64,000 nucleotides of DNA, from positions 1-64,000 of the forward strand of contig CAWDOY010000001.1 of the NCBI GenBank assembly GCA_963803975.1. Direction: 5' to 3'. Source of the DNA: an uncultured delta proteobacterium. GTDB lineage: Bacteria; Desulfobacterota; WTBG01; CAIYCZ01. Positions 32,782 through 60,436 of this stretch are shown here, piece after piece. The notes beneath the pieces were generated by a model. That model made no database searches and was not told where the DNA came from. It saw only the letters and a program-made list of their open reading frames with translations. A program made the position numbers and the translations under genes. The first letter of the stretch is position 1, and every line of letters starts with the position of its first letter.

Positions 32782-33186
32782 TTATGAATGCTGATCCTGC
32801 TTTTCCCTAATTATCCTCTGCACATGTTCATAAAAATCCACTACCCTGCGAAGCATTTCGGGGCGGTCAAGGTTCGGCTCGTTGGAGTCGAACAGGTCAT
32901 AGCGCATCTGCACTGCAAAAGGGTTAAGCTCGATAAGGTTTTCGAATTGAAAGACACCGCAGCCTTAATCCTGAAGCATCAGAAACAACTGCTGAAGATC
33001 ATGGGTGCGTCCATAATTCCCCCCGGTAAGGATTATCCATGCCTTCAGGGATTTTTCCACTGCCTGTTGAGCATGAAAGCCGAATATTTCGTCGTCAGCA
33101 GAATCAGGGTCAATAAGCGACCGCAGGGCCTTTATGTCTTTTGCGGCCAGGGTTTGCATCATCACGGCCTGCTCAGGCACGCTCAT
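32782..33186 (-). pseudogene. HEPN-domain protein with in-frame TAA at 32965-32967
   Basis: FHAQQAVEKSLKA, THDL; after the stop the same frame continues ..LNPFAVQMRY..QHS*. Confidence 0.8.
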
Positions 33187-33505
33187 ATAAAACTCTCCCT
33201 TCTTTTAACGCATGGGAAATGACGTGGTTGCCGGCTGTTCGCCACTTTTCGATTTCCTCCGCAGTATACACCAGAAAATCCTTTGCAACCCGGTAGGCAC
33301 CGAGAAGCTTCCAGAGCCGGGTCATTTCAGCGCGGCGGCTTCGCTGGGCATTGAAAGGACCATCCTCAACCACCAGGAAATCGAGGTCTGAGTCGGCGCT
33401 TGCAGCGCCGCGGACATGCGAACCAAAGAGAATGACTTTACGGGGGTTGACCTCTCTGACAATTTTGTCAGTCATTTCCTGAAGTATATCTTCGGTTATA
33501 TGCAT
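33173..33505 (-). CDS. Minimal nucleotidyltransferase (MNT) antitoxin
   Basis: ILFGSHVRG..DSDLDFLVV, EGRVLYE; overlaps HEPN start. Confidence 0.88.
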   Translation of the reverse strand: MHITEDILQEMTDKIVREVNPRKVILFGSHVRGAASADSDLDFLVVEDGPFNAQRSRRAEMTRLWKLLGAYRVAKDFLVYTAEEIEKWRTAGNHVISHALKEGRVLYERA

Positions 33506-33574
33506 TGTGAGTACCTCCGTTATTGTCGCTAAATTCAATTGCTAATAATCAAACGTTACAATAAACACCGGGCC

Positions 33575-33675
33575 TATCTTAAAAAGCGGTTTATCTTCAC
33601 TCATATGCTGATACCCTCACGATAAACATTGCTGATAAAGGCGGATTCCCGAAGGGGACTGTTTTTTAAATTCGC
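33575..33675 (-). pseudogene. Remnant of a third MNT-HEPN junction
   Basis: NSPLRESAFISNVYREGISI* (MNT C-terminus) with ATGA overlap at 33601-33604 into MSEDKPLFK. Confidence 0.5.
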
Positions 33676-33702
33676 CCCTCATGTATGACCGATCATATTT
33701 TG

Positions 33703-34110
33703 CTATTCATCAAGCTTCTTTAGTTCGATTCCTAAAACGCTCTCAAGCTCTTTGATACATATTTCAGCTTTTGCAATCCACTCCGGCACTTTATCATGTT
33801 CAAAGTGAACAAAATCTCCATAATCGCTTTTCTGCCTGAAATCAAACATGACAGAATAGAATTTGCCGGTCTCTACGCTGACCTTGCCGGTTTTGACAAA
33901 GTGCTCATTGAACATTGCCCTTACGCCACTATGCTTTGCAGATGCCAGATCAAAAGCAGCAAGCAGGGCAGACACCTCATAAAACAGGGAATAATAGATA
34001 CGATTCACCGCAGAATATAAACTGTTTTCACGGTAAAGAATTTTTGCATCCTGCAGTGTTTCCTGCGCCCGTTTTCTTCTATAGGTGAGCAACTCATTTT
34101 TCTGGTTCAT
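33703..34110 (-). CDS. HEPN-domain protein (UPF0332-like)
   Basis: AVNRIYYSLF, KHSGV, RQKSDY. Confidence 0.88.
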   Translation of the reverse strand: MNQKNELLTYRRKRAQETLQDAKILYRENSLYSAVNRIYYSLFYEVSALLAAFDLASAKHSGVRAMFNEHFVKTGKVSVETGKFYSVMFDFRQKSDYGDFVHFEHDKVPEWIAKAEICIKELESVLGIELKKLDE

Positions 34111-34433
34111 ACTACAATCCCCTCATTTTTTATGCTTTGATAGATTGGCATGCACATACACTGTGGTGATTTCCAGAAAGCCCTGGAATACACGATAATT
34201 CCAAAAATCACATTGCAGTTGAGCTCAACATCATAGGCAAGATTAAAAATTTCCTCCTCGATAGAATTGGTTACTTCTAAGGGGACAAGAACAAGAATGT
34301 CTATATCAGATAAGGAACCATACTCACCACGAGCTGCTGAACCAAAAAGATGCAGTTCTGTCGCTGTACCAAATTTTATTATCAATCTTTTTTTCAGCTC
34401 AAGAATGGCTTCTTGTATCTTTTTACTTTCCAT
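34107..34433 (-). CDS. Minimal nucleotidyltransferase (MNT) antitoxin
   Basis: LFGSAARG..SDIDILV, IKNEGIVV; ATGA overlap with HEPN. Confidence 0.88.
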   Translation of the reverse strand: MESKKIQEAILELKKRLIIKFGTATELHLFGSAARGEYGSLSDIDILVLVPLEVTNSIEEEIFNLAYDVELNCNVIFGIIVYSRAFWKSPQCMCMPIYQSIKNEGIVV

Positions 34434-34625
34434 ATGCGCGCTTTCCATTTGATTGTCAAAGATTGCGGAAGGTTGTTTTAAACAAGGAATATGCGTGATG
34501 AGTATATGATTAAAACATTGGTGTGTCAAAGAAAAAGCAAGAAATATGAATTAGTTTGGGCTGCTGCAGGGAGCCTTTTAGCTTGCTAAAGAAAGAGGCC
34601 TGTGGTAAAAATTTTAACCTTAAAT

Positions 34626-43182: not shown

Positions 43183-46125
43183 ATGGCGTTGCAGAATGTA
43201 TCCCCCCAGTGGAGATCTTTTTTGGTGCGGTTTATTTTACCAACCGCCATCACCATCGCCCTGTTTTTAACTTCCATTTTTTCTATCGTTATTCCCACCA
43301 TTGAGAAAAACAGCCTGGACCGCAAGCGGGAGATGATCCGCGAACTGACCAACTCAGCCTGGAACATTCTGGCGAAACTGGAGAACGATGTGCGGCTGGG
43401 GGTGCTGACCAGGGAGCAGGCCCAGAAGCAGGCCATTGACCAGATCCGCAACCTGCACTACGGCCAGGAGATGAAGGACTACTTCTGGATCAACGACATG
43501 CACCCGCGCATGGTTATACACCCGTACCGCACCGACCTGAACGGCAAGGATTTAAGCGACTACCAGGACCCGAACGGGAAACGGGTGTTCGTGGAATTTG
43601 TCAACGTGGTCAAAAAAGAGGGCTCCGGTTTTGTCAATTATATGTGGCAGTGGAAGGATGATAAAGCCCGCATTGTACCTAAAATCTCGTATGTCAAAGG
43701 ATTTGCGCCGTGGGGATGGATCATCGGCACCGGGATTTACATTGAAGACGTGAAGGCGGAAATTGCCCTGCTGATTCGCAATGTCATTGAGATCTCGCTG
43801 TTCATCCTGGTGGTCATGGCAGTGCTGCTGGCAACCATTATTATTCAGAGCTTCAGAACCGAGCAGCAGCGGCGCATTGCGGAGCAGGCGCTGCAGGAGT
43901 CTGAAGTGAAATACCGCACCCTGGTTGAGTCTGCTGCTGAAGGCATGCTTATGGCGCTCGAGGGCAGGTATATGTATGCCAACCAGACCATAGCAGCGCT
44001 GCTTGAATACAGCCAGGACGAGTTTTCGCAGATGCCCGTCCAGGAAATTTTCGTGCAGACACCAGCTCATCCCAGCTACCGGCACCTGCAGAATTTCATG
44101 GCGGGAAAGCCGCTTCCCGAAAGGTTTGAAGCGCAGTTGAAAACCAAATCAGGGGGCAGCAGGGATGTCATATTGTCCACATCCCCGATTGTTATCGGGG
44201 GCCGGGCAGGCTTTATCGTGGTTGCAACAGATATAACCCAGCGCAAGCAGGCCGAGGACGCGTTAGGTGTGAGCGAAGAAAAGTTTCGTACTCTGGCAAA
44301 CAACCTCAATGTCGGGCTGTTCAGGAGGACCATTGGCGACAGCCCGAAATTTATCGAGGTAAACCCGGCGCTGGTCTCGCTGCTTGGTTATGACAGCAAG
44401 GAAGAACTTCTTTCTATCTCAGCGGTCGATTTGTATGTTAATCCGGACGACCGGAAGAAATTTGAGCCAAAAGTCGAGCCGCAGGTTTCAAAAAGAGAAA
44501 TTAAAAGAGAAATTGTCAAGCTCAAGAAAAAAGACGGGACATTTTTTTTCTCCTCCATCTGGGCTGTTGTCATTAAAGATGAAGACGGGAATCCGCACTA
44601 TGTTGATGGGATTCTCGAAGACATAACAGACCTTAAATCCAGAGAAGAAGAGCAGGAACGCCTCCTTTCAGAAATGCAGGCGGCTTTGCTTTTTTTTAAC
44701 CAGCCGATAGAAAGCCTGCAGGTACAGGACGCCGTAGTATGTTCGCCCGCCACCAGCATTGCAGCGGCGGTATCCTTACTGGAGCAGCGGGAAACCGACG
44801 TCCTGTTGATACGAGATAACCAGGAAAACAATGTCGGGGTCATTACCGATCTGGACTTGAGAAAAAATGTTATGGCTAAAGGATGTCATCTGGATAAGCC
44901 CGTTTCAAGCATCATGAGTTCCCCCGTCATATCCATGTCCTGCAACTCGTGTATTTTTGAGGCCGGTCTTCTGATGGAGCAAAAACACATTTCCCATCTA
45001 TTTGTGACCAATAATCATGACCGTATTATTGGCGTGATTCGCAGTGACCACATCAGCGCAATTCAAAAATATTCTCCCACGATTCTTCTGCGGGATATCA
45101 ATAACGCCAAAGCTCCCCATGACATCATTGAGCACAATGCAGAACTCCCGTATCTTATCAATACCGTAATCAATAGCGGCGCAAAACCTCAATATATTAA
45201 TCATCTGACAACCATTATTGTAGATGCCGTGCTGCAAAAATTCATAGATTTTGCCATTCAGGAGCTTGGCATTCCTCCCGCCAGATTTACTTTTATAATT
45301 TTCGGCAGCGAGGGGCGTCAAGAGCAGACGCTGAGAACCGATCAGGATAATGCCATCATCTATGAAGATGTGCCGCCGGAGGCTGAGGAATCGGTGCAGG
45401 GGTATTTCCTGAATCTGGGGCAGCGGGTCTGCGGCTGGCTGCATCAGGCAGGGTATTCCTACTGCGAGGGAAACAATATGGCGCAAAATCCGCAATGGTG
45501 CCAGCCACTCTCTACCTGGAAGCGATATTTCAGTGAATGGATTGCCAACGGCACGGCAGAAGATCTGCTGAAAGCGAAAATCTTTTTTGATTTCAGAGGC
45601 GCTTATGGTGAACAGACTTTTGTGCAGCTGTTGCGAAAACATTTACATACGGTCATAGGGCAGAACCCGCGTTTTTTCCAATTGCTGGCAAGAAACGTGC
45701 TTCAGCTGAGCCCTCCCATAGGTTTCTTCGGGAATTTTGTTGTAGAATCGGTGGGAGAAAACAAGAAAGCTTTTGACATAAAAAGCTCCATGATGCCGAT
45801 TGTCGATTATGCAAGAATTTATGCGCTGCAGCATAACATAGCGGCGACCAATACCTTTGAACGATTAAAGCAGCTGTATGAACGCAACCTTCTTTCGCAG
45901 CAAAATTATCAGGAGATGATACAGGCATACAGCTATCTGATGCAGACCCGTCTTTGCACGCAGGCAGAGGCCATCATGCAGGGGAATAAACATCCCGATA
46001 ACTATGTCAGTCCCAGAAAACTGACCTACATTGAGCGCAAATTGCTAAAAGAGATATTTGCTCAAACAAAAAATTTTCAGGCGCGATTGAGCTATGACTT
46101 TACCGGACAGATGGGCGGTGTTTAA
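43183..46125 (+). CDS. Membrane sensor: TM-sCache_2-TM-PAS-PAS-CBS pair-DUF294 nucleotidyltransferase-DUF294_C
   Basis: YFWIND..MVIHP..Y.W Cache motifs; two PAS/PAC ending DITQRK and DITDLK; CBS GVITDLDL..IMSSPV; GSEGRQEQTLRTDQDN; C.GN.MAQNPQW, IFFDFR, DIK..PIVD.AR, NT.ERL. Confidence 0.88.
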   Translation: MALQNVSPQWRSFLVRFILPTAITIALFLTSIFSIVIPTIEKNSLDRKREMIRELTNSAWNILAKLENDVRLGVLTREQAQKQAIDQIRNLHYGQEMKDYFWINDMHPRMVIHPYRTDLNGKDLSDYQDPNGKRVFVEFVNVVKKEGSGFVNYMWQWKDDKARIVPKISYVKGFAPWGWIIGTGIYIEDVKAEIALLIRNVIEISLFILVVMAVLLATIIIQSFRTEQQRRIAEQALQESEVKYRTLVESAAEGMLMALEGRYMYANQTIAALLEYSQDEFSQMPVQEIFVQTPAHPSYRHLQNFMAGKPLPERFEAQLKTKSGGSRDVILSTSPIVIGGRAGFIVVATDITQRKQAEDALGVSEEKFRTLANNLNVGLFRRTIGDSPKFIEVNPALVSLLGYDSKEELLSISAVDLYVNPDDRKKFEPKVEPQVSKREIKREIVKLKKKDGTFFFSSIWAVVIKDEDGNPHYVDGILEDITDLKSREEEQERLLSEMQAALLFFNQPIESLQVQDAVVCSPATSIAAAVSLLEQRETDVLLIRDNQENNVGVITDLDLRKNVMAKGCHLDKPVSSIMSSPVISMSCNSCIFEAGLLMEQKHISHLFVTNNHDRIIGVIRSDHISAIQKYSPTILLRDINNAKAPHDIIEHNAELPYLINTVINSGAKPQYINHLTTIIVDAVLQKFIDFAIQELGIPPARFTFIIFGSEGRQEQTLRTDQDNAIIYEDVPPEAEESVQGYFLNLGQRVCGWLHQAGYSYCEGNNMAQNPQWCQPLSTWKRYFSEWIANGTAEDLLKAKIFFDFRGAYGEQTFVQLLRKHLHTVIGQNPRFFQLLARNVLQLSPPIGFFGNFVVESVGENKKAFDIKSSMMPIVDYARIYALQHNIAATNTFERLKQLYERNLLSQQNYQEMIQAYSYLMQTRLCTQAEAIMQGNKHPDNYVSPRKLTYIERKLLKEIFAQTKNFQARLSYDFTGQMGGV
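43315..43610 (+). repeat. 296-bp near-identical repeat, copy 1 (Cache domain core)
   Basis: Matches 47341-47636 with about 10 substitutions counted by eye and no indels. Confidence 0.92.
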
Positions 46126-46884
46126 TTGATACTGGTAACCTCTGATACGCACTGTTATTACGATACCATCAATCAGCAGGTCGAATATGCCGAGGCGGTC
46201 CTGAACAATGCGATCTCCTGCGTCATTCATCTGGGAGACTTCGGGATTTATAAAGCCAATCTGCATGAATACTTCATCAGGAAGGGCAAGCGGTTTATCC
46301 GGCCGGTATATTTCATAGAAGGTAATCACGAGGACTTTCAGGCCTTCCCCCGGCTCACGGAAAAATACCGGGATTTTTTCACCTACCTCCCGCGGGGAAC
46401 CGTCCACACCCTGGATGGCTACCGCTTTCTGGCGCTCGGCGGGGCAGCCTATATGGATTCTTTCAACACGCAGAAGGGGGCGATCATCACAGATGCCAAT
46501 ATTAATCAGTGCCTTTCAATCCCTCGGGATGCCGTTGATATTATTCTTACCCATGACTGTCCGAACGGGATCGGCGTGCCGAATACGCCGGGGCTTGATT
46601 ATTATGGCGCAACCGGTTTTCCCCGAAGCGACGAACTGGGGGCTCATTTTAAGCCGCGACTGTGGCTGTTCGGCCATCATCACAAGCTCTTTGAATACGG
46701 GGATGCCTGTACGCGGTACTACGGTCTTGGCGACACCTGGAAGGGATTCGGCCTTTTAGATGCAGATTATCAGTTCAGGATTGTGATGCACCAGATTGCA
46801 TGGGAGCGCCCGCCCCTTATTGAAAGACTGCTGATAAAGCTCAAAATCATCAGGCCGGACCGGCCCCCGGTCAGCATCGAGTGA
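46126..46884 (+). CDS. Calcineurin-like metallophosphoesterase
   Basis: SDTH, HLGDFG, EGNHE, THD, FGHHH motifs; TTG start directly after upstream stop. Confidence 0.88.
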   Translation: MILVTSDTHCYYDTINQQVEYAEAVLNNAISCVIHLGDFGIYKANLHEYFIRKGKRFIRPVYFIEGNHEDFQAFPRLTEKYRDFFTYLPRGTVHTLDGYRFLALGGAAYMDSFNTQKGAIITDANINQCLSIPRDAVDIILTHDCPNGIGVPNTPGLDYYGATGFPRSDELGAHFKPRLWLFGHHHKLFEYGDACTRYYGLGDTWKGFGLLDADYQFRIVMHQIAWERPPLIERLLIKLKIIRPDRPPVSIE

Positions 46885-47208: not shown

Positions 47209-48660
47209 ATGACAGCCCAGCAGCTACCTTTTCACTGGAAATCCTTTGGCATGAGGATTATTCTTCCCACCATCCTCACCATCGCGCTTTTCATCCTGGC
47301 GCTGTTTATGTTTATCATTCCCACCATTCAAAAAAACAGTCTGGACCGCAAGCGGGAGATGATCCGCGAGCTGACCAACTCAGCCTGGAACATTCTGGCG
47401 AAACTGGATAACGATGTGCGGCTGGGGGTGCTGACCAGGGAGCAGGCCCAGAAGCAGGCCATTGACCAGATCCGCAGCCTGCACTACGGCCAGGAGATGA
47501 AGGACTACTTCTGGATCAACGACATGCAACCGCGCATGGTCATACACCCGTACCGCACGGACCTGAACGGCAGGGATTTAAGCGACTACCAGGACCCGAA
47601 CGGGAAGAGGGTGTTTGTGGAATTTGTCAACGTGGTGAAGAAGGACGGCTTCGGCTATGTTGACTATTTGTGGCAGGACCGCGACAATAAAAATCTCGTT
47701 GTGCCTAAAATCTCCTATGTGAAGGGGTTTGCACCCTGGGGCTGGATTATCGGCACCGGGATTTACATTGACGACGTTCAGGCGGAAATCGCCCTGCTGA
47801 TCCGCTCCGTCATGAGGATTTCAGGGGTTATTCTGCTGCTGATGCTGCTGCTGCTCGCAAGCATTATCCGGCAGAGCTACCGCACCCAGAAACAGCTGTG
47901 GGTTGAAGAAGAGGAGCTTAAAAAAACCCAGGCCAGCCTGGCATTTGCAGAAAAAATGGCGTCCCTGGGAAAGCTCTCGGCAATGGTCGCCCATGAAATC
48001 AATAATCCTCTTTCAGGAATTCTATCCTATGCCAAACTCTCATCCCGATATCTGAGCAAAGCTACCGGTGACACTGAAACCGCGGCAGAGATCAATAATA
48101 ACCTCTCTTTTATCGCTGCCGAGGCCAAACGTTGCGGAGACATCGTCAAAAACCTGCTGCAGTTTGCAAAACGGGCTTCAGGGGAAGTGAAAGAGACGCA
48201 TCTCAATGAAATAGTTGATGTAAGCATGCAAGTGATTGCCCACAGCGTCAAGATGAAAAACCTGGAGCTCAAAAAACAGCTGGGCCAGGGAGACGACCTG
48301 ATTCAATGCGATGCAGGCGCCATTCAGCAGATCCTTATCGCCATGATTGTTAATTCCATAGAATCGTCATCACCCGGGGGGACCATTATTGCCCGCACTG
48401 ACTATAATGATGCGGCGTGCGTTCGGATCGCGTTGAAGGATTTTGGGGCGGGAATTGCCCCTGACGTGCTGCCGCACATATTTGAGCCTTTTTTCTCCAC
48501 AAAAGAATCAAATAAGAGCATGGGGCTGGGGCTGTCGGTGGTATACGGCATTGTCCAGCGGCACGGCGGTACCATCAGCGTGGATTCGCGCGCGGGCGCG
48601 GGTACCGAGTTTGTCATCACCCTCCCCCGCACACAACAGACCGCTGCCAACCAAACGTAA
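47209..48660 (+). CDS. sCache_2 sensor histidine kinase (NtrB-like)
   Basis: TM-Cache-TM; EKMASLG..VAHEINNPL H-box; N, DFGAGI, FEPFFSTK, GLGL boxes. Confidence 0.93.
   Translation: MTAQQLPFHWKSFGMRIILPTILTIALFILALFMFIIPTIQKNSLDRKREMIRELTNSAWNILAKLDNDVRLGVLTREQAQKQAIDQIRSLHYGQEMKDYFWINDMQPRMVIHPYRTDLNGRDLSDYQDPNGKRVFVEFVNVVKKDGFGYVDYLWQDRDNKNLVVPKISYVKGFAPWGWIIGTGIYIDDVQAEIALLIRSVMRISGVILLLMLLLLASIIRQSYRTQKQLWVEEEELKKTQASLAFAEKMASLGKLSAMVAHEINNPLSGILSYAKLSSRYLSKATGDTETAAEINNNLSFIAAEAKRCGDIVKNLLQFAKRASGEVKETHLNEIVDVSMQVIAHSVKMKNLELKKQLGQGDDLIQCDAGAIQQILIAMIVNSIESSSPGGTIIARTDYNDAACVRIALKDFGAGIAPDVLPHIFEPFFSTKESNKSMGLGLSVVYGIVQRHGGTISVDSRAGAGTEFVITLPRTQQTAANQT
47341..47636 (+). repeat. 296-bp near-identical repeat, copy 2 (Cache domain core)
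   Basis: Matches 43315-43610. Confidence 0.92.
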
Positions 48661-48677: not shown

Positions 48678-50021
48678 ATGAAACCAGCCGACATAGGAAT
48701 CCTTATTGTTGATGATGAAGCTTCGGTACGGGATGCTCTCTATAAATGGTTTAAATTTGACGGATACCGCGTAGATACGGCTGAAGAAGCCACCAGCGCG
48801 CTTAAAAAGCTTCAGGAGGATTCCTGGGAGATTGTTCTGCTGGATATTAAAATGCCGGGCATGGACGGGCTGGAACTGCAGCGGCAAATAAAAAAGATTG
48901 ATAAGGACATTATAACTATTATCATTACCGCCTTTGCCTCAGTTGATACCAGCATCCAGGCGCTCAAAGAGGGAGCGTTTGATTACATTGTCAAACCCAT
49001 CGACCCTGATGATATGAGCCATCTCATCAGGAATGCAGTTGAACAGAGACGGCTGCTTACTGAAAACATGCAGCTGCGGCAGCAGATTGAGGAAATCTCC
49101 TACCCGGATGAGATTGTGGGAGAAAGCCCGGCACTTAAAAAGGTCATGGATAAGGTTGCCACGGTCGCGCAGACCGATTCAACCGTCATGATCCGCGGAG
49201 AAAGCGGCACCGGGAAGGAACTGATCGCACGGGCTATCCACAGCAACAGCAACCGCAGGTATTTTCCTATCATTACCATCAATTGCGGGTCCTATGCGGA
49301 AGGGCTGCTGGAAAGCGAACTTTTCGGCCATGAAAAGGGGGCCTTCACCGGGGCGCTGTACCGGAGACGGGGCAAGCTGGAAATGGCCGACAAAGGAACC
49401 ATATTTTTGGATGAGATCGGCAATATCGGGGAGAAGATGCAAATGGATCTGCTGCGGGTAATTGAAACGCGGCAGTTCACCCGGCTGGGAGGCGATAAGC
49501 TTATCAGCGTTGATTTCAGGATTATCAGCGCAACCAACAAGGACCTGGAAAAGGCGGTCAGGGAAGGAAGCTTTCGTGAAGACCTGTATTACCGGCTCAA
49601 TGTTTTTTCCATAACCCTGCCGCAGCTGCGTGAGCGAAAATCAGATATTGCGCTGATAGCACGGTTTTTCGTGAATAAATATTCCCAGTCGATGAATAAA
49701 ACTGTTACCGATCTTTCTCCCGAAACGCTGGATATGCTCATGAAATACCACTGGCCGGGAAACATCCGGGAGCTGCGGAACGTTATTGAGCGGGCGATGG
49801 TGGGTGCGCGGGGTCCCCGCATTGAAGTATCCGATCTCGCTTTTCCCTTTCATCCTTCCTCAAAACTGTCAAGCGAAGAGACCCTGGAGGCAGTGGAAAA
49901 AAATCATATCAAAGATATTCTGGATCGCACCGGGGGCAATGTCGCTCAGGCTGCAGGCATCCTCAAGATCAGCCGGCTTACCCTGTATAATAAAATAGGA
50001 AAATACCGGTTAAAAAAATGA
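48678..50021 (+). CDS. Sigma-54-dependent response regulator (NtrC/AtoC family)
   Basis: Receiver IVDDE..LLDIKMP; GESGTGKE, ESELFGHEKGAFTGA, FLDEIG, FREDLYYRL, WPGNIREL; Fis HTH. Confidence 0.95.
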   Translation: MKPADIGILIVDDEASVRDALYKWFKFDGYRVDTAEEATSALKKLQEDSWEIVLLDIKMPGMDGLELQRQIKKIDKDIITIIITAFASVDTSIQALKEGAFDYIVKPIDPDDMSHLIRNAVEQRRLLTENMQLRQQIEEISYPDEIVGESPALKKVMDKVATVAQTDSTVMIRGESGTGKELIARAIHSNSNRRYFPIITINCGSYAEGLLESELFGHEKGAFTGALYRRRGKLEMADKGTIFLDEIGNIGEKMQMDLLRVIETRQFTRLGGDKLISVDFRIISATNKDLEKAVREGSFREDLYYRLNVFSITLPQLRERKSDIALIARFFVNKYSQSMNKTVTDLSPETLDMLMKYHWPGNIRELRNVIERAMVGARGPRIEVSDLAFPFHPSSKLSSEETLEAVEKNHIKDILDRTGGNVAQAAGILKISRLTLYNKIGKYRLKK

Positions 50022-50042: not shown

Positions 50043-50570
50043 ATGTTCTATATCTACATCGTGCCCATCAGCGGACAGGGACTCGGCTGTATTGAAGAAT
50101 TGCAGCGCTGCGTTGAGCATGCCTTTGGCGTCAAGACGAAATGCCGCGCCTTTAACGTCAACCTGCCGGACACCTTCGACCCCCACAGAAAACAGTACAA
50201 CTCCTCTCTTATCCTGCGGCAGTTAATTGCCGCGCCCCCAGCGGATGCATACAAAATTCTGGGGATTACCGGCATGGATCTTTTTATTCCCATACTCACC
50301 TATGTTTTCGGCGAGGCACAGCTTGACGGCATCGGGGCGGTGGTTTCGCTGCACCGGCTCAACAATCAGTTTTACGGTTTGCCGGAAGACCCCGGCCTGA
50401 TGCATGACCGGCTCCTGAAAGAGGCAGTGCATGAGCTGGGGCACACCTTCGGGCTGCTCCACTGCTTTCATCCCGGCTGCGTACTTAACGCATCCACCTA
50501 TGTGGAGGACATTGATCAGAAGTCGCGCGAACTTTGTTTCACCTGCCGGGAGACCATCAGATTGAAGTAA
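50043..50570 (+). CDS. Archaemetzincin-family Zn-dependent peptidase
   Basis: RKQY, DLF.P.LTYVFGEA, KEAVHELGHTFGLLHC...C, D.K...C..C. Confidence 0.9.
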   Translation: MFYIYIVPISGQGLGCIEELQRCVEHAFGVKTKCRAFNVNLPDTFDPHRKQYNSSLILRQLIAAPPADAYKILGITGMDLFIPILTYVFGEAQLDGIGAVVSLHRLNNQFYGLPEDPGLMHDRLLKEAVHELGHTFGLLHCFHPGCVLNASTYVEDIDQKSRELCFTCRETIRLK

Positions 50571-50649: not shown

Positions 50650-51453
50650 TTATGGCACGGTCTTTGTTGTTAAGCAGTTTTCCGGAGAAGGGCAATTCTC
50701 GCTCCGGGATAAAGAGTCTATTATCTGATAGTACTGCTCCGCGCTGAGAAGCTCGGCAAGAGAATTTATTTTCACCCCCCCATCCTGCATGGTGGGGCCG
50801 AGGTCGTTCGATGAGTGCTGCAGCATTGCCGTGCCCGCTGCAGTCAGTTCCTGGTGCTTCTGCTGGTACCAGGCGAGAGCCTTTTTGCCGAACAGCAGGT
50901 TCCGCAGGTCATGTTCAAGGGTTGCGGGCTTTACGGTGACCATCCACCCCTCATCCCAGGGGTCGCTCATTATCAGCTCAGGTTCCTTTTGCAGCCGCTT
51001 GTTTATCAGCTGGATGGTTCCGGTAAGCGGTGCAATAACCGGTATGATATGGTGTTCCTGAATTATGTGCGCGCAGCATTCCCCCTGGCGTATCATCTCG
51101 CCTTCCTGCGGCAGAACTACTGCTTTCAACCGAACCATCAGCCGGGTCAGCACATCATCAATGCCAATCCGGACATTTTCCGGGTCCTCAACTTTTACCC
51201 AGCAGTGACCGGGATGATAAAAGAGCGACCAGCGCAGATGGAGAGAGGCATCCGGCACTGAAGAGAGCTCTTCCCCGGTCCCGGCTTCCTGCCGGGAATC
51301 CTCTGCTGCGGCCTCATTGCGCATCACCTGATCAAACATGCAGGTTTCGCACCGGTAGTCACGGGCGCAGAGCTTATAGGAGATCAGGCCGGTGGTCATC
51401 CAGACGCATCTTTTTTCTTCTTCCGGAATCAGATGACACTCTTTTTTGCTCAT
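50650..51453 (-). CDS. GcvH-like protein lacking the lipoyl lysine, with N-terminal Cys4 motif
   Basis: FYHPGHCWV, VRIGID, APLTG..IN..L..PELI.SDPW.EGW H-protein fold; ESVK position reads IQEH; CVWM..G..SYKLC..DY.C..C. Confidence 0.82.
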   Translation of the reverse strand: MSKKECHLIPEEEKRCVWMTTGLISYKLCARDYRCETCMFDQVMRNEAAAEDSRQEAGTGEELSSVPDASLHLRWSLFYHPGHCWVKVEDPENVRIGIDDVLTRLMVRLKAVVLPQEGEMIRQGECCAHIIQEHHIIPVIAPLTGTIQLINKRLQKEPELIMSDPWDEGWMVTVKPATLEHDLRNLLFGKKALAWYQQKHQELTAAGTAMLQHSSNDLGPTMQDGGVKINSLAELLSAEQYYQIIDSLSRSENCPSPENCLTTKTVP

Positions 51454-51590
51454 AGACTTGCAACCGTATTCAGCCGGGTTGTGATAAACAGACATGTATG
51501 TATAGTAGCGTTTTTGTTAACAGCCCTGAAAAGTTTTATAATATATCCCGTGTGTTCGATCTCTCCTGTTTTTTCTGGGCGTTCAGGAGA

Positions 51591-51631: not shown

Positions 51632-52963
51632 TTACTTATCCTTTTTTTCTATTTTTTCACCACCGTCAGCCATGGTAAAACCCAACTGGGGTTCAAATAT
51701 GACGCCGGCGGGAACAGTGGCAGGCTTGGATGCTTTCATGGAGAAGGTCAGCCCGGCTCCCACAATGAGCATAATCGCAGCTATCAGAAAGGATGAGCTG
51801 AAACTTCCGGTGTTTGTTTGCAGCATCTGGGATACCCTGCTCATGACAAACCCGCCAATCCCCCAGGCCGTGAACATGATTCCATAGTTAATGCCGAACG
51901 ACTTGAGCCCCCACAGATCCTTGGTGAGAGACGGAAACAGGGACAGGTTTGATCCATAGTTAAAGCCGATAAACGTTGCCAGCAACAGCATCAGGACTGC
52001 ACTCGGGTGCTCTGCGCCGACCAGCGGGATGGCGGCAAGCATAAGCACTGCCTGGAACAGAAGCATCATCAGCATCGTATAATTTCTGCCGATTTTGTCG
52101 GATAATATGCCGGCTATAATGCGGCCGCCGGCATTGCCCACCGCCATGATGGCCACTGCCAGGAATGCTGCATTGGGCATGCTCTTCTTTGCCATGCCGG
52201 CGATGCTGCTGATAACCATCAGTCCCACGCCAGCACCGATGAAATAGATAAACCAGAGCACATAAAAGTTGGCTGACTTCATCATTTGTGCGGGAGTGGC
52301 ATCAACGCTCAACGCGGATTTTTTAACGGCTCCCTTTTTGTTCTGTGTCGCAGCTTCAGGCACATAGCCCTGCGGAGGATTAACCAGCAGCAGGGAAAGC
52401 CCGCACACCACGACAAGAAAAGCAACGCCAAACAGCATCATTGAATTATTGATGCCCATGGTTTTTAAGAGATACTCGGACAGGGGCGCGATATAAACTG
52501 ATGCGAGCCCGAAACCAGCCACCACCAGCCCTGCAATCAAGCCGGTTTTTGCCGGAGGGAACCATTTCAGGGCCGGCGGCGTTGCCGCGGAATAGCCGAA
52601 ACCGATCCCCGCTCCGGCCAGCACGCCGAACCCCAGAAGCCATGCTGCGTAACTATTGGACTGAGAACACAGCAGCAACCCGATCGCCACGAGAATGCCG
52701 CCGATAAAAGCAGTTATGCGCGGCCCAACCTTATCCTGACACTTGCCGGCAATGATCATTGAGAATGCAAAACAGAGACAGCAAACAGAGTACGGGTCAT
52801 TCATCTGCGCTGCACTCCAGCTGAAGATGCCGTCTTTTGCCTCAATTGATTTTGCTATGGAGCCCTTGAAAATACTCCAGGTATACAGAATGCCAAGGGC
52901 AAGGTTAATGCCGGTTCCTGCGAATGTTACCATCCATCCTTTGTTTTTTACTGCCTGTGTCAT
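51632..52963 (-). CDS. OFA-family MFS transporter (oxalate/formate antiporter-like)
   Basis: LGILYTWS.F, QDKVGPR, G.G.G.GY, KWFP..TGL..G, N..GR...G.LSDKIGR, NYG..FTAWG; about 12 TMs. Confidence 0.9.
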   Translation of the reverse strand: MTQAVKNKGWMVTFAGTGINLALGILYTWSIFKGSIAKSIEAKDGIFSWSAAQMNDPYSVCCLCFAFSMIIAGKCQDKVGPRITAFIGGILVAIGLLLCSQSNSYAAWLLGFGVLAGAGIGFGYSAATPPALKWFPPAKTGLIAGLVVAGFGLASVYIAPLSEYLLKTMGINNSMMLFGVAFLVVVCGLSLLLVNPPQGYVPEAATQNKKGAVKKSALSVDATPAQMMKSANFYVLWFIYFIGAGVGLMVISSIAGMAKKSMPNAAFLAVAIMAVGNAGGRIIAGILSDKIGRNYTMLMMLLFQAVLMLAAIPLVGAEHPSAVLMLLLATFIGFNYGSNLSLFPSLTKDLWGLKSFGINYGIMFTAWGIGGFVMSRVSQMLQTNTGSFSSSFLIAAIMLIVGAGLTFSMKASKPATVPAGVIFEPQLGFTMADGGEKIEKKDK

Positions 52964-53423: not shown

Positions 53424-53692
53424 ATGGCACACGGACCAACGACACAATGGGGAGAGGACAAAGCGTCAGAGTACAAGTCAAAGCTCGGGGTGTATCTGTT
53501 TATTTTTTATACTTTAGTGTATGCCGGCTTTATAATCATAAACGTAGTGAGTCCCAAACTGATGGGAGTAAAAGTGATTTAGGCCTTAATCTGGCAGGCG
53601 TGTACGGGTTCGGTCTGATTCTACTGGCTATCGTTATGGGACTTATTTACAACTACCTCTGTTCACAAAAGGAATATGCAGTTAATAAATAG
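53424..53692 (+). CDS. DUF485 (YjcH-like) small membrane protein; frameshift near 53580
   Basis: AGGAGG RBS; MAHGP..KSKLGVYLFIFY..YAGFI..PKLM then LGLNLA..GFGLI..GLIYN; precedes actP-like gene. Confidence 0.75.
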
Positions 53693-53707: not shown

Positions 53708-55609
53708 ATGATTTATGCAGCTTCGCCGTTCGCAATCGGCTTGTTTATCGCGTTTGTGTTATCTGTTCTCGGGATTTCGTCGTATTTTGCCAAGAAGACG
53801 CAGTCATCAAAAGGGTATTATGCGGCCGGTGGAACCATTCACTGGGGTGTCAACGGCATAGCGTTTGCCGGTGATTATCTTTCTGCCGCCTCATTTCTGG
53901 GAATCTGCGGGATGATCGCATTTGACGGTTATGACGGATTTCTGTATTCCATAGGGTATCTTGCTGGCTGGGTTGTGGCCTTGTTTGTGGTGGCAGAACC
54001 CCTGAAGCGTTTCGGTAAATATACGTTTACCGACGCGCTTGATTATAAATTCGGTTCCAAGGGAATACAGCTCACCGCAGCCATCAGCACCCTTGTTGTT
54101 TCCCTGTGCTATCTGGTGCCGCAGATGGTCGGCGCCGGCGACCTGGTTACTCCGCTGCTGGGATTTCCCCATTATGTCGGGGTTATCATGGTTGGCGCTA
54201 TTGTTATATTCATCGTGGCGACAGCCGGCATGACCTCAACAACGTATGTTCAATTTATAAAAGGCGGCCTCCTGATCGTTTTTTCCACAATTCTTACCAT
54301 CTGCGTTTTCAATAACGGTATTTCAAAGAAACCTTCAGAAAATTACCACGAGTTTAAAGCACTGAAAGCTGTTGCCGCAGGAGGAGCTATTACTGCAGTT
54401 GAGGACACGTCCTATAAAATCGCCGGTGAATTTAAAGATAAAAAGGGACAGTTTGTAAAGCTTGAAAAAGACGGCATTAATTCATGGTGGAAGGCCGGTG
54501 AAAAAAATGGGGCGCCGGTGCTTGAAGAAGCACTCTCGCTCACGACTCGCGCGGACGGCACCAAGCTCTACAATGGCGAGCCCAAAGAAGCGCGGAAGTT
54601 TTTCCAGGTCGGCAGCGCAAGCAAGATTATTGTGGATGGCCAGGAAGTTGACAAGACCGGCGGCCTGGGTCCGTTTCAGTTCCTTGAGACTTTGGAATCA
54701 AGCGAGATTGTCCGTTTCGGCAAGGCAGCTATCAGCGACGGCAAAGACAAGGTTTCAGTCTTTTATCAGAACCCGACTTCCGGAAAAGATATCATGCGCC
54801 CCGGGCTGAAATTTAAAGTGGATAAGGGCTCTGATTTCATGTCAAAACTTAATTTCGTGTCCCTTATGATCGCCCTGTTTTTCGGCACCTCCGCACTTCC
54901 GCACATCCTCATCCGCTATTACACGGTCCCCAGCCCGAAAGACGCGCGCAAATCAACCATTGTTGCCATCGGCTCCATCGGTTTTTTCTACATCCTCACC
55001 CTGTTCATGGGCCTGGGGGCAATGGTCTCCGGCGTCATTGACCTTGAGAGCAGCAACATGTCGGCGCCGCTGCTCGCAAAATATTTCGGCACCGCCCTTT
55101 TTGCCATAATATCCGCAATCGCTTTCGCGACGGTTCTTGGTACGGTGAGCGGCCTGATTGTCGCCGCCTCAGGAGCAGTGGCACATGACCTGATGTCAAA
55201 TTTTTTAGGCATTGAAATGACCGATCAGGGCCAGGTTAAGGCAGGGAAAATTTCGGCAGTTGTTGTCGGCTGTATCGCAATACTGCTGGGCATACTCTGC
55301 AAGGGAATGAACGTATCGTTTCTCGTAGGCCTTGCGTTTGCCGTGGCCGCATCCGCCAATCTGCCGGCAATCATCATGCTGCTGTTCTGGAAAAAAACGA
55401 CCTCTAAAGGGATTGCCGCTTCCATTGTAGTAGGCATGGTATCAGCGCTGGGGATGATTCTGCTCTCTCCCAGCACCTATGCGGACATTTATGGCCTGCC
55501 TGCTACACAGGCCCCCATTCCCCTTGATAACCCCGGCATCATATCGATACCGCTCAGTTTTATAACGCTGGTGGTGATTTCACTGGTGACACAGAAGCAG
55601 GCGAAATAA
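53708..55609 (+). CDS. actP: Cation/acetate symporter ActP-like (SSS family) with large hydrophilic insertion
   Basis: NGIAFAGDYLSAASFLG, AEPL..GKYT..D, QMVGAG, GT.ALPHIL.RYYTVP..ARKS, AFATVL.TV.GL, AASANLP. Confidence 0.88.
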   Translation: MIYAASPFAIGLFIAFVLSVLGISSYFAKKTQSSKGYYAAGGTIHWGVNGIAFAGDYLSAASFLGICGMIAFDGYDGFLYSIGYLAGWVVALFVVAEPLKRFGKYTFTDALDYKFGSKGIQLTAAISTLVVSLCYLVPQMVGAGDLVTPLLGFPHYVGVIMVGAIVIFIVATAGMTSTTYVQFIKGGLLIVFSTILTICVFNNGISKKPSENYHEFKALKAVAAGGAITAVEDTSYKIAGEFKDKKGQFVKLEKDGINSWWKAGEKNGAPVLEEALSLTTRADGTKLYNGEPKEARKFFQVGSASKIIVDGQEVDKTGGLGPFQFLETLESSEIVRFGKAAISDGKDKVSVFYQNPTSGKDIMRPGLKFKVDKGSDFMSKLNFVSLMIALFFGTSALPHILIRYYTVPSPKDARKSTIVAIGSIGFFYILTLFMGLGAMVSGVIDLESSNMSAPLLAKYFGTALFAIISAIAFATVLGTVSGLIVAASGAVAHDLMSNFLGIEMTDQGQVKAGKISAVVVGCIAILLGILCKGMNVSFLVGLAFAVAASANLPAIIMLLFWKKTTSKGIAASIVVGMVSALGMILLSPSTYADIYGLPATQAPIPLDNPGIISIPLSFITLVVISLVTQKQAK

Positions 55610-57236: not shown

Positions 57237-58742
57237 TCAGGAGGAGCCGAACCCAAAGCTCATGAGACGCTCGCGTATTTTAGTTTTAAATGTTGGAAGA
57301 GCAATTTTAATCGTGAGCAGCAGGTTGTAATTAAAAGCTTTCAGCATAAGGTAGAAATAAGATACGGGTTCAATAAAAATCACGATGAAAAAATATAAAA
57401 TAGCAAGCACTGATTTTGCAATCAGTTTTTCTCTGTTCCGTACAAAATAGTCTATCATGGGTGATGTAATCAGCGGAGAAATCCTCACCAGTTTATTCAA
57501 ATACGTGGGCTGGTAGTTAAAATAATTTCTGATCCCCAGATCAAGGGAACCCATTTTTTCGTGAAGCAGGTCAAAAATCTCCGTACCTTTATAGAAGGTG
57601 AGGGTAAAGAGCTGAAGCTGAAAAGGCTTGCGCACGTTCTGCAGGACGCGCACGGTGTTCAACGCATCCTCCTCTGTTTCAAACGGATTATCGAGGATGA
57701 CATCGTAGTATCCGCTAATGCCGTATTTCCGCACGATGTCGGTTGCCTCTAAAAATTTTTCATTGGATACATGACGGTGATATACTTCCCGGTTGATCCG
57801 TTCACTTCCTGACTGCAGCCCCATCGTTACCCAGGCAAGACCTGCCGGCTTCAGGGTCTTTACCTTCTCTTCGGTCAGGTGGAGCGGTGTTGAGCGCACA
57901 ATGAACGGCCGGGCTATCCACTTTTTATAATCGCCGACGAATTCCTCATGCCACTCTCTGCTGTGGGCCAGGAAACAGTCATCATGAATATTCACCAGGA
58001 TAATGCCAGGGAACTGTTTTATGACCGAGCGCAGCTCTTCAATCACATTGCCCGGGGATCTCTTTCTGATTTTTTTTGTGCCGTAAAGCCGGGATAAAAA
58101 TGAATTGCAGCAGTATGCGCAGGAAAACGGGCACCCCCGGGAGGTTATCATATTATATGCCTTGCCGTCATAGCGGGTATACTGCCTGAAAAGCTTCATG
58201 TCCATGGCGAGGATTTTGCCTCCATGGTAGACATAGGAATGAGCCGGCAAGTGTTCAGGGAACGGGATCCGGTCCAGATCATCTATAAGCGGGCGGAGCG
58301 GATTTTTTGTTATCCCTGAGTCATCTTTAAAAGCTATGTTGTTGATGTGTGCGATGCCGGCATTTTTTTCCAGTGCGCGCGCTATCTCCAGGACGGTCTC
58401 TTCCCCTTCACCAATACAGACCATATCAGCATACTCAAGACACTCTTCAGGGCTTATGGTGGGATGTATGCCGCCAACCAGAAACGGTATATCAGGATAC
58501 CGCGCTTTGACGCTTTTGCCGATATAGGCGGCAAACGGGGCTTCATAACTCATAAACCCGCAGCCAATTAACTGCGGCTGATACGATGCAATAAAATCGA
58601 GCAGGGGGTCTTGAACATTTTGGGTATGCGAGGGAATGAAAAGAATGGCTGACTGATGGCCCTCCTGCAGCAGGCTGGCATGCAGGTATTTAACCCCGAA
58701 ATTTTCAGTCGTTGGCAACAGGGATAGGAGAAGAATTTTCAT
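57237..58742 (-). CDS. B12-binding radical SAM protein
   Basis: GGIHPT, IGEGE, SRGCPFSCAYC, HDD.F, GLQSGS. Confidence 0.9.
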   Translation of the reverse strand: MKILLLSLLPTTENFGVKYLHASLLQEGHQSAILFIPSHTQNVQDPLLDFIASYQPQLIGCGFMSYEAPFAAYIGKSVKARYPDIPFLVGGIHPTISPEECLEYADMVCIGEGEETVLEIARALEKNAGIAHINNIAFKDDSGITKNPLRPLIDDLDRIPFPEHLPAHSYVYHGGKILAMDMKLFRQYTRYDGKAYNMITSRGCPFSCAYCCNSFLSRLYGTKKIRKRSPGNVIEELRSVIKQFPGIILVNIHDDCFLAHSREWHEEFVGDYKKWIARPFIVRSTPLHLTEEKVKTLKPAGLAWVTMGLQSGSERINREVYHRHVSNEKFLEATDIVRKYGISGYYDVILDNPFETEEDALNTVRVLQNVRKPFQLQLFTLTFYKGTEIFDLLHEKMGSLDLGIRNYFNYQPTYLNKLVRISPLITSPMIDYFVRNREKLIAKSVLAILYFFIVIFIEPVSYFYLMLKAFNYNLLLTIKIALPTFKTKIRERLMSFGFGSS

Positions 58743-58785
58743 GTATCGGCTTTATGTAGTAGAACGGATTGCAAGGGAAAAAGCG

Positions 58786-60327
58786 TCAAACGGTTTTGAC
58801 GTGCCCGGTTTTTTTATTTAATCCAGGCCGCGGAAAAAGCGTCCGTATCCTGTCTGCCAGTTTTTTTCGTGCAAACAGCCGGTACCGGGCCATAAAGTTA
58901 GCCGCATCAACATCATATTCCTTGTGCCGGTCAAGCAGACGCGAAATGCTGTGGGCAAGCATGCCCAGGTCCGGAAAAACCTTGTAGATCCTGGCCCGGA
59001 TGAGAGCTCTGTTCAGCCATTTGGGAAGAGCAAGGAGCACCACCAGATAGGTTTGAATCCGGGCGAAGTTTTTTATCGTAATGGTGCCGCCCTGGATAAA
59101 GGAGCGGGCGGTGAGGCCCTCATTTATCTCTTCCACGTCCCGGGGCGTGAGCATCTTATGCTCCATGGCTATATCTATAATCTTGGTGCGCGGGAAATAG
59201 CGCAGGAAATAGAGGCTGAGACGGTTGGGCCGGGTCTCATTATAAAACGAGAGCATGTTGACCAGGTCATCCTCAGTCTGCGTGGGAAGGCCCAGCATAT
59301 TTTCACAGATTGCATGAATGCCGGCACTGCGCAGCAGCAGGATCGCGCTTCTCACCTTCTCGTTGCTTTCCCTGCGGTTGAGGATGTTTTTTTTCAGCTC
59401 TTCGTTGAGGGACTGAACACCCATAATCGCCTGCCAGCAGTTTGCCTCCTTGAGCCGTGCCACAGACTCTTCATCGATGAAATTAACATGAATGCAGGCG
59501 GTGAATGGCAGATTTATATCTTTCTTATAGCCATCCAGAAATTCAAAAAGCCATTTCTTGTCGCTGATTAATATTTCATCCCAGAAATGCACCGCGGAAA
59601 AATTATAGGTTGCTTTTGCCCAGCGCAGTTCTGCAAGGACATTTTCCGGACTTCTCCGGCGCATGAATCTGCCCTTGCCGGGATAGATTATATCCTTGTA
59701 GAGAGAGTTGTTGCAGAACGTGCATTTATTTACGCATCCCCGGCTGGTAATAGTTATGTAGCCCTCTGCAAAGAAGGGCAGCTTGTCATAAAAGATGCCT
59801 TTATCCGGGAACGGCAGCGCGTCAAGGTCTTCGATGAGCGGCCGCACCTCATTCTTGAACACCTCTGTTCCGTTTTTCGCCCAGATGTTGGGAATGGTGC
59901 GGCAGATGGCTGGATTTCCCAGGTTGTCTGCAAGGTCAACCAGCGCCCCCTCACCTTCTCCCACTACTATATAATCTACTGACGGCTGCCTGATAACATA
60001 GTCCGGCACCGAGGACGGGTGCACACCGCCAAACACAATGGGAACCTGCAGGGCCTTTTTTATCCGGTCAGCAAGGCGTACTGCCCAGGGATAATTATCA
60101 GACACCACTGAAAAGGCAACCAGGTCAGGCTTACAGGATTTCAATTCGGTAATGATATCTTCAGTGTAGTCAAAAAATTTATGCAGTCGTTTATAATAGA
60201 GAAAGGTATCGTTGAAGAGCTGCGGGTCAAAGCACAGCGAGCACTTGTGCCCGGCCTGTTTGAGGGCAGTAGCAAGGTACTCTATGGCAAGTGTTTCACA
60301 TGCAGATGATACAAAGACAATATGCAT
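58786..60327 (-). CDS. B12-binding radical SAM protein
   Basis: GGVHPS, VGEGE, SRGCVNKCTFC, WDE, GVQS. Confidence 0.9.
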   Translation of the reverse strand: MHIVFVSSACETLAIEYLATALKQAGHKCSLCFDPQLFNDTFLYYKRLHKFFDYTEDIITELKSCKPDLVAFSVVSDNYPWAVRLADRIKKALQVPIVFGGVHPSSVPDYVIRQPSVDYIVVGEGEGALVDLADNLGNPAICRTIPNIWAKNGTEVFKNEVRPLIEDLDALPFPDKGIFYDKLPFFAEGYITITSRGCVNKCTFCNNSLYKDIIYPGKGRFMRRRSPENVLAELRWAKATYNFSAVHFWDEILISDKKWLFEFLDGYKKDINLPFTACIHVNFIDEESVARLKEANCWQAIMGVQSLNEELKKNILNRRESNEKVRSAILLLRSAGIHAICENMLGLPTQTEDDLVNMLSFYNETRPNRLSLYFLRYFPRTKIIDIAMEHKMLTPRDVEEINEGLTARSFIQGGTITIKNFARIQTYLVVLLALPKWLNRALIRARIYKVFPDLGMLAHSISRLLDRHKEYDVDAANFMARYRLFARKKLADRIRTLFPRPGLNKKTGHVKTV

Positions 60328-60436
60328 TACTATTAATAACCTTTTTCGGATTGAAACGGCGGCTGGTAATGCGCGGGTTTCGATAACCGTAAAATGTTCA
60401 GGGCTAATCTACCCCGGTTCAGCATTCTGTAAGGGC

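Follow-up and report, generated by a model that had tools for sequence, protein, structure and literature searches.

A candidate carboxylate receptor with a GlnE/DrrA-like DUF294 output, encoded with a phosphoesterase and an ActP-type symporter in an uncultured delta proteobacterium

In this study, we analyzed 64,000 nucleotides (nt) of an uncultured delta proteobacterium (assembly GCA_963803975.1, contig CAWDOY010000001.1, positions 1 to 64,000; hereafter the window) and, within it, a gene at 43183..46125 on the forward strand that encodes a transmembrane receptor with a nucleotidyltransferase of the DUF294 family as its output. Our best model, which is put forward tentatively, is that this receptor and the phosphoesterase encoded directly behind it form a carboxylate-regulated writer/eraser pair that would nucleotidylate an ActP-type transporter. 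It is equally conceivable, at the same tentative level, that such receptors constitute a class of one-component membrane receptors signalling by reversible nucleotidylation rather than by phosphorylation, methylation or known cyclic nucleotides. Acetate outside the cell might then switch a GlnE-like enzyme whose tag gates the importer of acetate, with phosphoesterases of at least six unrelated types, and possibly a DUF6915-like domain, acting as erasers; we regard this as a working proposal. The original prediction, made from the letters of the window, had described a receptor nucleotidyltransferase. That description stands for the receptor and its intact GlnE/DrrA-like output, but it overlooked two neighbours that probably determine how the system works, namely a phosphoesterase abutting the receptor and a transporter of the ActP type.

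The soluble DUF294 family is already known. A literature search, with most subscription journals outside its reach, returned no description of the Cache-DUF294 receptor architecture and no transmembrane receptor that has a nucleotidyltransferase as its output, and the receptor form appears to be a new architectural variant. DUF294/COG2905 proteins are widespread and lie within the well-studied CrbS/R (MxtR/ErdR) acetate regulon. If the model is true, a function would be assigned to the whole COG2905/DUF294 family, and if the symporter is the target, sediment anaerobes and many other phyla would have a post-translational on/off switch for acetate uptake. In the receptor form the ligand can be predicted, the catalytic fragment is soluble, an eraser is paired with it and the possible targets are few, and therefore the question is directly testable.

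The receptor gene is a single uninterrupted open reading frame of 980 amino acids (aa) with no internal stop codon, and its product has the layout transmembrane helix, sCache_2, transmembrane helix, PAS, PAS, CBS pair, DUF294, DUF294_C. Pfam matches were obtained for sCache_2 at residues 46-195 (E 1e-41; 43318..43767), for two PAS domains at residues 244-351 and 366-483 (43912..44631), for the CBS pair (44704..45072), and for DUF294 at residues 654-791 (E 3e-45) and DUF294_C at residues 829-973 (E 8e-44), which together make up the output (45142..46101). With 154 bits for PF03445 (curated cut-off 21) and 149 bits for PF10335 (cut-off 22.5), the receptor is a member of the DUF294 family, and it is neither a classical COG2905 protein nor GlnE nor GlnD. 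Hydrophobic 19-residue windows begin at residues 11-23 and 192-209, on either side of the Cache domain, and both regions are helical in the structure model; the two transmembrane helices are predicted at about residues 12-38 (43216..43296) and 200-222 (43780..43848). These helices and sCache_2 replace the N-terminal cNMP-binding domain of the classical soluble COG2905 layout, and the Pfam scan of the 980-aa protein gave no cNMP_binding match. A transmembrane receptor with a DUF294 output (by Pfam, hydropathy and fold match) and a kinase-style Cache/PAS input in place of the cNMP domain, both proposed earlier, were thus borne out.

The locus set comprised 143 loci, namely 68 from genomes, 74 from metagenomes and the window, after L069 was dropped as a copy of the window. 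We counted 90 receptor genes in 86 loci, window included. Two PAS domains with CBS were present in 43 of these genes, one PAS domain with CBS in 35, and one PAS domain without CBS in 12. A phylum was on record for 50 receptor genes, and the eight phyla were led by Bacteroidota (23), Thermodesulfobacteriota (8) and Ignavibacteriota (7). Because a full-length receptor was found in 9 of 40 related genomes, with several more matched in pieces, but in none of three genomes of the window's own family, the distribution is patchy. In the window's genome, which is 98% complete, the receptor is the sole DUF294 gene. Four loci without ActP (L031, L032, L047 and L088, from Desulfobacter and a metagenome) carry runs of two or three consecutive DUF294 genes, all receptor forms except for an additional soluble form in three of the loci, near a DUF3360 or DUF2333 gene and a dynamin-like gene.

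The catalytic motif GSEGRQEQTLRTDQD (GSxGRxE..DQD) occupies residues 708-722 and is intact, in agreement with the Pol-beta-type motif noted at the outset. The motif region as annotated covers residues 708-723 (45304..45351). In an alignment of 121 sequences, positions G708, S709, R712, E714, T716, D720, Q721, D722, N723 and A724 were invariant in 121/121, and the motif was matched in 89 of the 90 more diverse receptor genes, one motif Asp having been lost in L057. The model of residues 632-980 had a mean predicted confidence (pLDDT) of 94.9. Its fold matches were the GlnE N-terminal domain (Z 27.7, root-mean-square deviation (rmsd) 2.7, 303 aligned residues), the GlnE C-terminal domain (Z 26.3) and DrrA (Z 25.1), followed by a next match at Z 12.0, with other nucleotidyltransferases at Z 9.1 or less; Foldseek agreed. 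The GlnE and DrrA matches, at rmsd 2.7-3.7 over about 300 residues, cover the Pol-beta core and a GlnE-type C-terminal helical bundle. Structure prediction, suggested earlier as a check, accordingly places the output beside GlnE/DrrA protein nucleotidyltransferases (Z 25-28). By sequence, no solved relative of the DUF294 part was found, every structure match falling on CBS, and the Pfam and NCBIfam scans gave no match of the receptor to the GlnE or GlnD_UR_UTase profiles.

Enzymes of the GlnE/GlnD/DrrA type move nucleotides onto or off protein tyrosines, and GlnD and GlnE pair writer and eraser activities. The output resembles GlnE (1v4a, 3k7d), GlnD and the AMPylase domain of Legionella DrrA (6yx5) in its predicted fold of about 300 residues and in the GSxGRxE..DxD motif. 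It differs from them in its 12% identity, its single catalytic domain, its membrane input and its Pfam label, DUF294. Unlike those of GlnE and GlnD, the receptor loci show no recurring glnA, PII or nitrogen genes and have a carboxylate-uptake context instead. A common fold does not by itself establish the reaction. We believe that the output domain is very probably catalytically active and that its product is probably a protein adduct rather than a small molecule; the nucleotide attached is predicted to be adenosine or uridine monophosphate (AMP or UMP).

The closest solved relatives of the Cache domain are Adeh_3718 (4k08), on which the receptor Cache model overlays with rmsd 0.9, and PscD (5g4y). 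In 4k08, Adeh_3718 is described as acetate-bound. According to the text of PMC5062169, PscD has seven ligand contacts and binds acetate, glycolate, propionate and pyruvate, with the caution that affinities vary even among identical pockets. In our alignment to 5g4y and 4k08, all seven contacts are present in the receptor (Y100, W102, H113, F136, Y153, W155 and K167), and they are kept in 86-90 of the 90 receptor Cache domains. For this reason, the ligand is predicted with high confidence to be a C2-C3 carboxylate of the acetate type. The receptor shares the input of two transmembrane helices around sCache_2, with the seven contacts, with the carboxylate receptors PscD, Adeh_3718, McpP and the kinase MctS, and differs from them in having a nucleotidyltransferase-like output instead of a chemotaxis or kinase domain.

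In the PAS domains, which are likely to serve as a signal relay, we saw no conserved His or Cys. CBS is the least conserved region of the receptor (mean 0.50; Cache 0.78, catalytic domain 0.69). Its first GhhTxxD-type motif is kept (G552 in 89/92, T555 in 88/92, D558 in 86/92), and the second is degenerate, with H623 at that site in the window receptor. The GhhTxxD-type motif (GhhT/SxxD) is the ribose-phosphate nucleotide motif of adenylate-sensing CBS pairs. CBS was undetected by profile in 12 of the 90 receptor genes and in 13 of the best 120 of 2254 homologues. We consider CBS dispensable in the family and presumably an optional modulator, so that adenylate energy sensing is weakly indicated as possible but not central. 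The earlier suggestion that the receptor integrates an external ligand with the adenylate state is therefore narrowed in its ligand part to C2-C3 carboxylates by the pocket, and it is weak in its energy part, given the low conservation of CBS and its absence from some receptor genes.

Immediately after the receptor, at 46126..46884 (+), lies the gene of the candidate eraser, a calcineurin-like metallophosphoesterase of 252 aa (PF00149, 56 bits versus a cut-off of 21.5). Its TTG start stands right after the receptor stop codon, and its metal motifs DTH7, GDFG37, GNHED66, THD142 and GHHH183 are intact. There are 15 Metallophos genes in the 4.25 Mb genome, which gives a chance adjacency of about 1% on an estimated gene number. 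Counting as adjacent any gene within 700 nt of the receptor gene, a phosphoesterase-family gene was adjacent or fused in 68 of the 90 receptor genes, in 50 of the 62 with at least 1.5 kb of sequence on both sides, and in 33 of the 36 with flanks of at least 6 kb (hereafter well-flanked). The position is taken by three calcineurin-like families (25, 17 and 8 genes), which are 25-31% alike at E 0.002 or worse, by AP_endonuc_2 barrels (11), for which the match to CbiR phosphodiesterase was below cut-off, by PHP domains (2 adjacent, 2 fused N-terminally) and by HD domains (3); the HD labels and the calcineurin-like label of L114 were assigned by hand. In a quickly built tree, many branches of which are weak, the partner type switched at least 12 times (75 labelled rows, 7 states). 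Because unrelated hydrolases were recruited repeatedly, we infer a product with a phosphodiester bond that needs reversal. The receptor and the phosphoesterase would then be a writer and its eraser, which we consider quite probable. An apparent 955-aa receptor-phosphoesterase fusion in L114 proved to be an overlapping frame, and a 297-aa neighbour in Elusimicrobiota loci, tried as an eraser, resembles an outer-membrane barrel.

A His/Asp-rich DUF6915-like domain is adjacent or fused in 7 of the 22 receptor genes that have no recognised phosphoesterase (adjacent in L017:10587-10922, L026 and L037; fused in L032:2504, L047:3055-5637, L088:2075 and L090:3818-6604). It spans 110 aa with invariant His and Asp residues. 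The long proteins bearing it were Cache-DUF294 receptors in 71/71 cases, some of them from cultured marine bacteria, and its look-alikes were mostly viral. Searches of PDB and PHROG gave no informative match to DUF6915. We regard the domain as a candidate metal-dependent hydrolase.

The soluble relatives have another type of partner, a DEDDh nuclease, in 13 of 31 loci; in the window's genome, tblastn with one query gave no DEDDh match at E 1e-8. Compared with the COG2905 proteins (cNMP_binding, CBS pair, DUF294, DUF294_C; for example PP_0354, encoded with PP_0353, and Pflu5625 of P. fluorescens), the receptor shares the output with its motif and the CBS pair, and both systems have a phosphoesterase partner, RNase T-like in theirs, and a link to an ActP-type symporter (yjcH-actP). 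In contrast, the receptor spans the membrane and has an outside Cache domain and PAS in place of the cNMP domain, CBS can be lost, and the partner is calcineurin-like (as the Metallophos protein of the window), AP_endonuc_2, PHP or HD where that of COG2905 is DEDDh. In an 11-locus cluster (L073:3120-5276, L119:605-2761 and relatives), the soluble DUF294 protein has two cNMP-binding domains, and its neighbours are a single-domain response regulator, a 718-aa protein that combines a PAS-like part with a DEDDh domain at the C-terminus and, in many cases, a sodium:solute symporter (SSS) of another type. There, the eraser may be the regulated half.

The candidate target in the window is an ActP/MctC-like SSS transporter of 633 aa (53708..55609, +), which scored below the NCBIfam cut-offs of both ActP and MctC, together with the small DUF485 (YjcH-like) subunit (53424..53692, +). 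It is the sole SSS gene of the genome and sits 7.6 kb downstream of the sole DUF294 gene. An ActP-like symporter was found in the locus of 51 of the 90 receptor genes and of 27 of the 36 well-flanked ones, with 10 kb downstream allowed for the window and 8 kb for the other loci. In L006, L007 and L009, the symporter genes directly adjoin the receptor-phosphoesterase pair. The linked symporters fall into three subtypes, 22-42% identical to one another: an ActP/MctC-like type with DUF485, a longer MctC-like type with DUF485 and a VC_2705-type with DUF4212, and a probable porin frequently accompanies them. On these grounds we lean towards the symporter complex, that is, the ActP-type importer or its small subunit, as the nucleotidylation target. 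A Tyr at position 37 or 38 was present in 48/48 linked symporters, which is presumably common across SSS transporters. In L034:2921-3685 and 12 further loci, the VC_2705-type symporter is followed by a 250-aa membrane-anchored TPR-like protein and a probable, unannotated porin of 400-440 aa. The acetate/succinate channel SatP (YaaH family) was found with 3 of the 90 receptor genes (L023:17600, L045:7281, L090:2414); in L045, it is directly upstream and there is no ActP. Acetyl-CoA synthetase (Acs) was tried as a conserved neighbour and rejected.

We propose that an acetate-type carboxylate outside the cell would bind the Cache domain and that the signal would be relayed through the second transmembrane helix and PAS to the output, with CBS as an optional modulator. 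The GlnE/DrrA-like output would then attach AMP or UMP to the symporter or its small subunit, and the tag would shut off high-affinity uptake, plausibly when the outside acid is plentiful, the direction of control being presumed. The abutting phosphoesterase would strip the tag and keep uptake on. An eraser mutant should thus behave like a transporter mutant, and a writer mutant should show almost no phenotype, as on pyruvate. In this lineage, a twin Cache kinase with a sigma-54 regulator may respond to this ligand in parallel, at the level of transcription. A known case of transporter control is GlnK-AmtB, which is controlled through uridylylation by GlnD. The analogy lies in the reversible nucleotide tag, and DUF294 with dnaQ also occurs beside AmtB; unlike GlnK-AmtB, the receptor loci have no PII-like adaptor, and the signal would be an external one. 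Table 1 of PMC3412718 lists amtB-DUF294-dnaQ operons in Geobacillus and Anoxybacillus, mostly in rows without glnK.

The proposed writer/eraser control of the transporter agrees in part with published phenotypes of mutants in the soluble system of Pseudomonas and Shewanella. In P. putida on pyruvate, mutants of the nuclease PP_0353 and of actP-I were impaired, and the DUF294 mutant PP_0354 was not, as given in PMC9927547. The pyruvate pattern was repeated in bioRxiv 10.64898/2026.09.07.749794, where a yjcH mutant was impaired too and the function of PP_0353/PP_0354 was called unclear. A writer that silences the transporter when no eraser opposes it would produce this pattern. The text of bioRxiv 10.1101/072470 (Price et al.) states that DUF4212 subunits cofit with a nearby RNase T-domain gene and speculates that symporter expression needs the nuclease. 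Pflu5625 was placed within the CrbS/R regulon in PMC5715377, with no acetate phenotype, and in PMC9973855 the family appears as an entry in a COG list.

Several observations weigh against this proposal. No recognised phosphoesterase accompanies 22 of the 90 receptor genes, and the three HD neighbours are GAF-HD-GYP-like, belong to one clade and are weak. DEDDh, calcineurin-like, HD and AP-endonuclease folds also process RNA and small nucleotides. The best fold match of the output is the N-terminal domain of GlnE, which removes AMP instead of adding it. An ActP-like gene is missing from the loci of nine of the 36 well-flanked receptor genes, the linked symporters point to no acceptor residue specific to the transporter, and an N-terminal Tyr is not shared among the small subunits. 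All locus counts come from related loci and hence are not independent. On propionate, PP_0353 and PP_0354 mutants were impaired and actP-I and yjcH mutants were not (bioRxiv 10.64898/2026.09.07.749794), a pattern that a transporter-only target leaves unexplained. Our literature search found no signal, product, target or measured activity for DUF294/COG2905 members.

The same sensor and writer/eraser pair could tag another protein, such as an acid-metabolism enzyme or regulator, for example Acs or a transcription factor; this is unlikely, though to be taken seriously. GlnE tags a metabolic enzyme, Acs adjoins the receptor in L004 and L060, and an AcuC-type deacetylase does so in L008. The propionate phenotypes of PP_0353/PP_0354 do not follow ActP-I, and the speculation of Price et al. 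on symporter expression would also suit such a target. Against this, Acs was near only 4 of 86 loci by clustering and 3 of 90 genes by profile, compared with 51 of 90 for ActP-like genes, the two best Acs matches of this genome are on other contigs, and the receptor loci of different phyla have no further gene for a soluble protein in common.

We give a similarly low probability to the output making a diffusible nucleotide messenger, cyclic or oligomeric; the transporter or a regulator would be gated by it and the phosphoesterase would degrade it, much as a receptor cyclase has its own phosphodiesterase. Unrelated, interchangeable phosphoesterases suit a small molecule no less well than a protein adduct, the soluble members bear cNMP-binding domains, and other Pol-beta enzymes produce messengers. 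Yet the three clear fold neighbours over about 300 residues are all protein nucleotidyltransferase domains, far above any other nucleotidyltransferase, and no conserved messenger-binding protein recurs in the loci.

RNA editing, in which the output would add nucleotides to RNA (for example transporter mRNA or tRNA) and a nuclease-type partner would trim them, seems improbable to us. It agrees with the RNase T-like DEDDh protein as the classical partner, with a speculation on mRNA decay in PMC9927547 and with the placement of DUF294_C in the HEPN superfamily in PMC3710099. The latter article groups DUF294_C with the C-terminal domains of GlnD and GlnE, and this GlnD/GlnE/DUF294_C group is described there as having no conserved HEPN motif. 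Moreover, RNA nucleotidyltransferases were absent from the leading matches of the fold searches (TUTase at E 0.08 or worse), and the partner in the receptor loci is mostly calcineurin-like, not DEDDh.

Slightly less probable still is a domain that acts as a remover, or that binds nucleotides without catalysis and, as a scaffold in direct contact with the transporter, regulates it. The adenylyl-removing half of GlnE is indeed the top fold match (Z 27.7 versus 26.3 for the other half), and L057 has lost its motif Asp, but the motif is otherwise near-invariant, and only for a writer is it reasonable to have a hydrolase as constant partner.

A chimera assembled through the Cache repeat shared with the kinase gene, which the original prediction had itself raised, is already refuted by the homologues, since Cache and the nucleotidyltransferase domain occur together in 119 of the best 120 of 2254 homologues (with CBS and the C-terminal domain in addition in 104), receptor genes number 90 in 86 loci, and the full-length matches in related genomes are single. 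The repeat itself was confirmed: 43291..43590 (+) is 96% identical over 300 nt to 47317-47616, in the kinase gene 4 kb downstream, and this second Cache gene is missing from most related receptor loci. One contig of run X1, which may come from the source sample itself, overlies 43715-45719 with 5 differences, and contigs of run X3 overlie 43581-43736, 43715-44594 and 44626-46274. Contigs from independent runs thus cover the gene from the non-repeated end of the Cache region to within the catalytic domain, and none of the listed X1 and X3 contigs bridges the entire repeat. The two Cache domains of the window are 90% identical in DNA and at most 81% identical to any other receptor Cache compared, and for this reason the repeat is likely to reflect local, recent gene conversion with the kinase gene. 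The same high identity within the locus was seen in L003 (86%); the pattern is missing in L004, L007 and L009.

Frameshifts do occur elsewhere in the assembly, which would favour a chimera. The DUF485 gene is frameshifted near 53579 and in frame in a contig of run X1 (depth 6.6 of 10.9), and both Acs matches of the window's genome also change frame (contig C47 near 103530, C52 near 32730). The DUF485 frameshift is therefore likely to be an assembly error, and this suggests scattered indel errors in the assembly. Contigs of the RNA run X19 overlie 43581-44579, with none over the catalytic domain, and inform neither expression nor its absence. The promoter scan, the terminator scan and the search for a sigma-54 consensus all gave results at chance level.

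Other genes lie between the phosphoesterase and the symporter genes. One encodes a histidine kinase with sCache_2 between two transmembrane helices (47209..48660, +), whose sensor domain is 89% identical to that of the receptor and which likely senses the same ligand. It is followed by an AtoC-like sigma-54 response regulator (48678..50021, +; profile matches), an archaemetzincin (Peptidase_M54; 50043..50570, +), a GcvH-like protein with a Cys-rich N-terminus (50650..51495, -) and an L-lactate-type transporter of the major facilitator superfamily (MFS; 51632..52963, -), which matched the SfMCT model above cut-off. The kinase, the sigma-54 regulator and the lactate-type MFS gene may together form a parallel transcriptional arm in this lineage. 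The archaemetzincin and the GcvH-like gene are linked in close relatives only, where they travel with the Cache kinase and the sigma-54 regulator (4 receptor loci each). Elsewhere in the window, judging from translations, small genes at 33173-34529 resemble minimal nucleotidyltransferase/HEPN modules of the toxin-antitoxin type, and three tandem B12-binding radical SAM-like genes lie at 57237-61945 (-).

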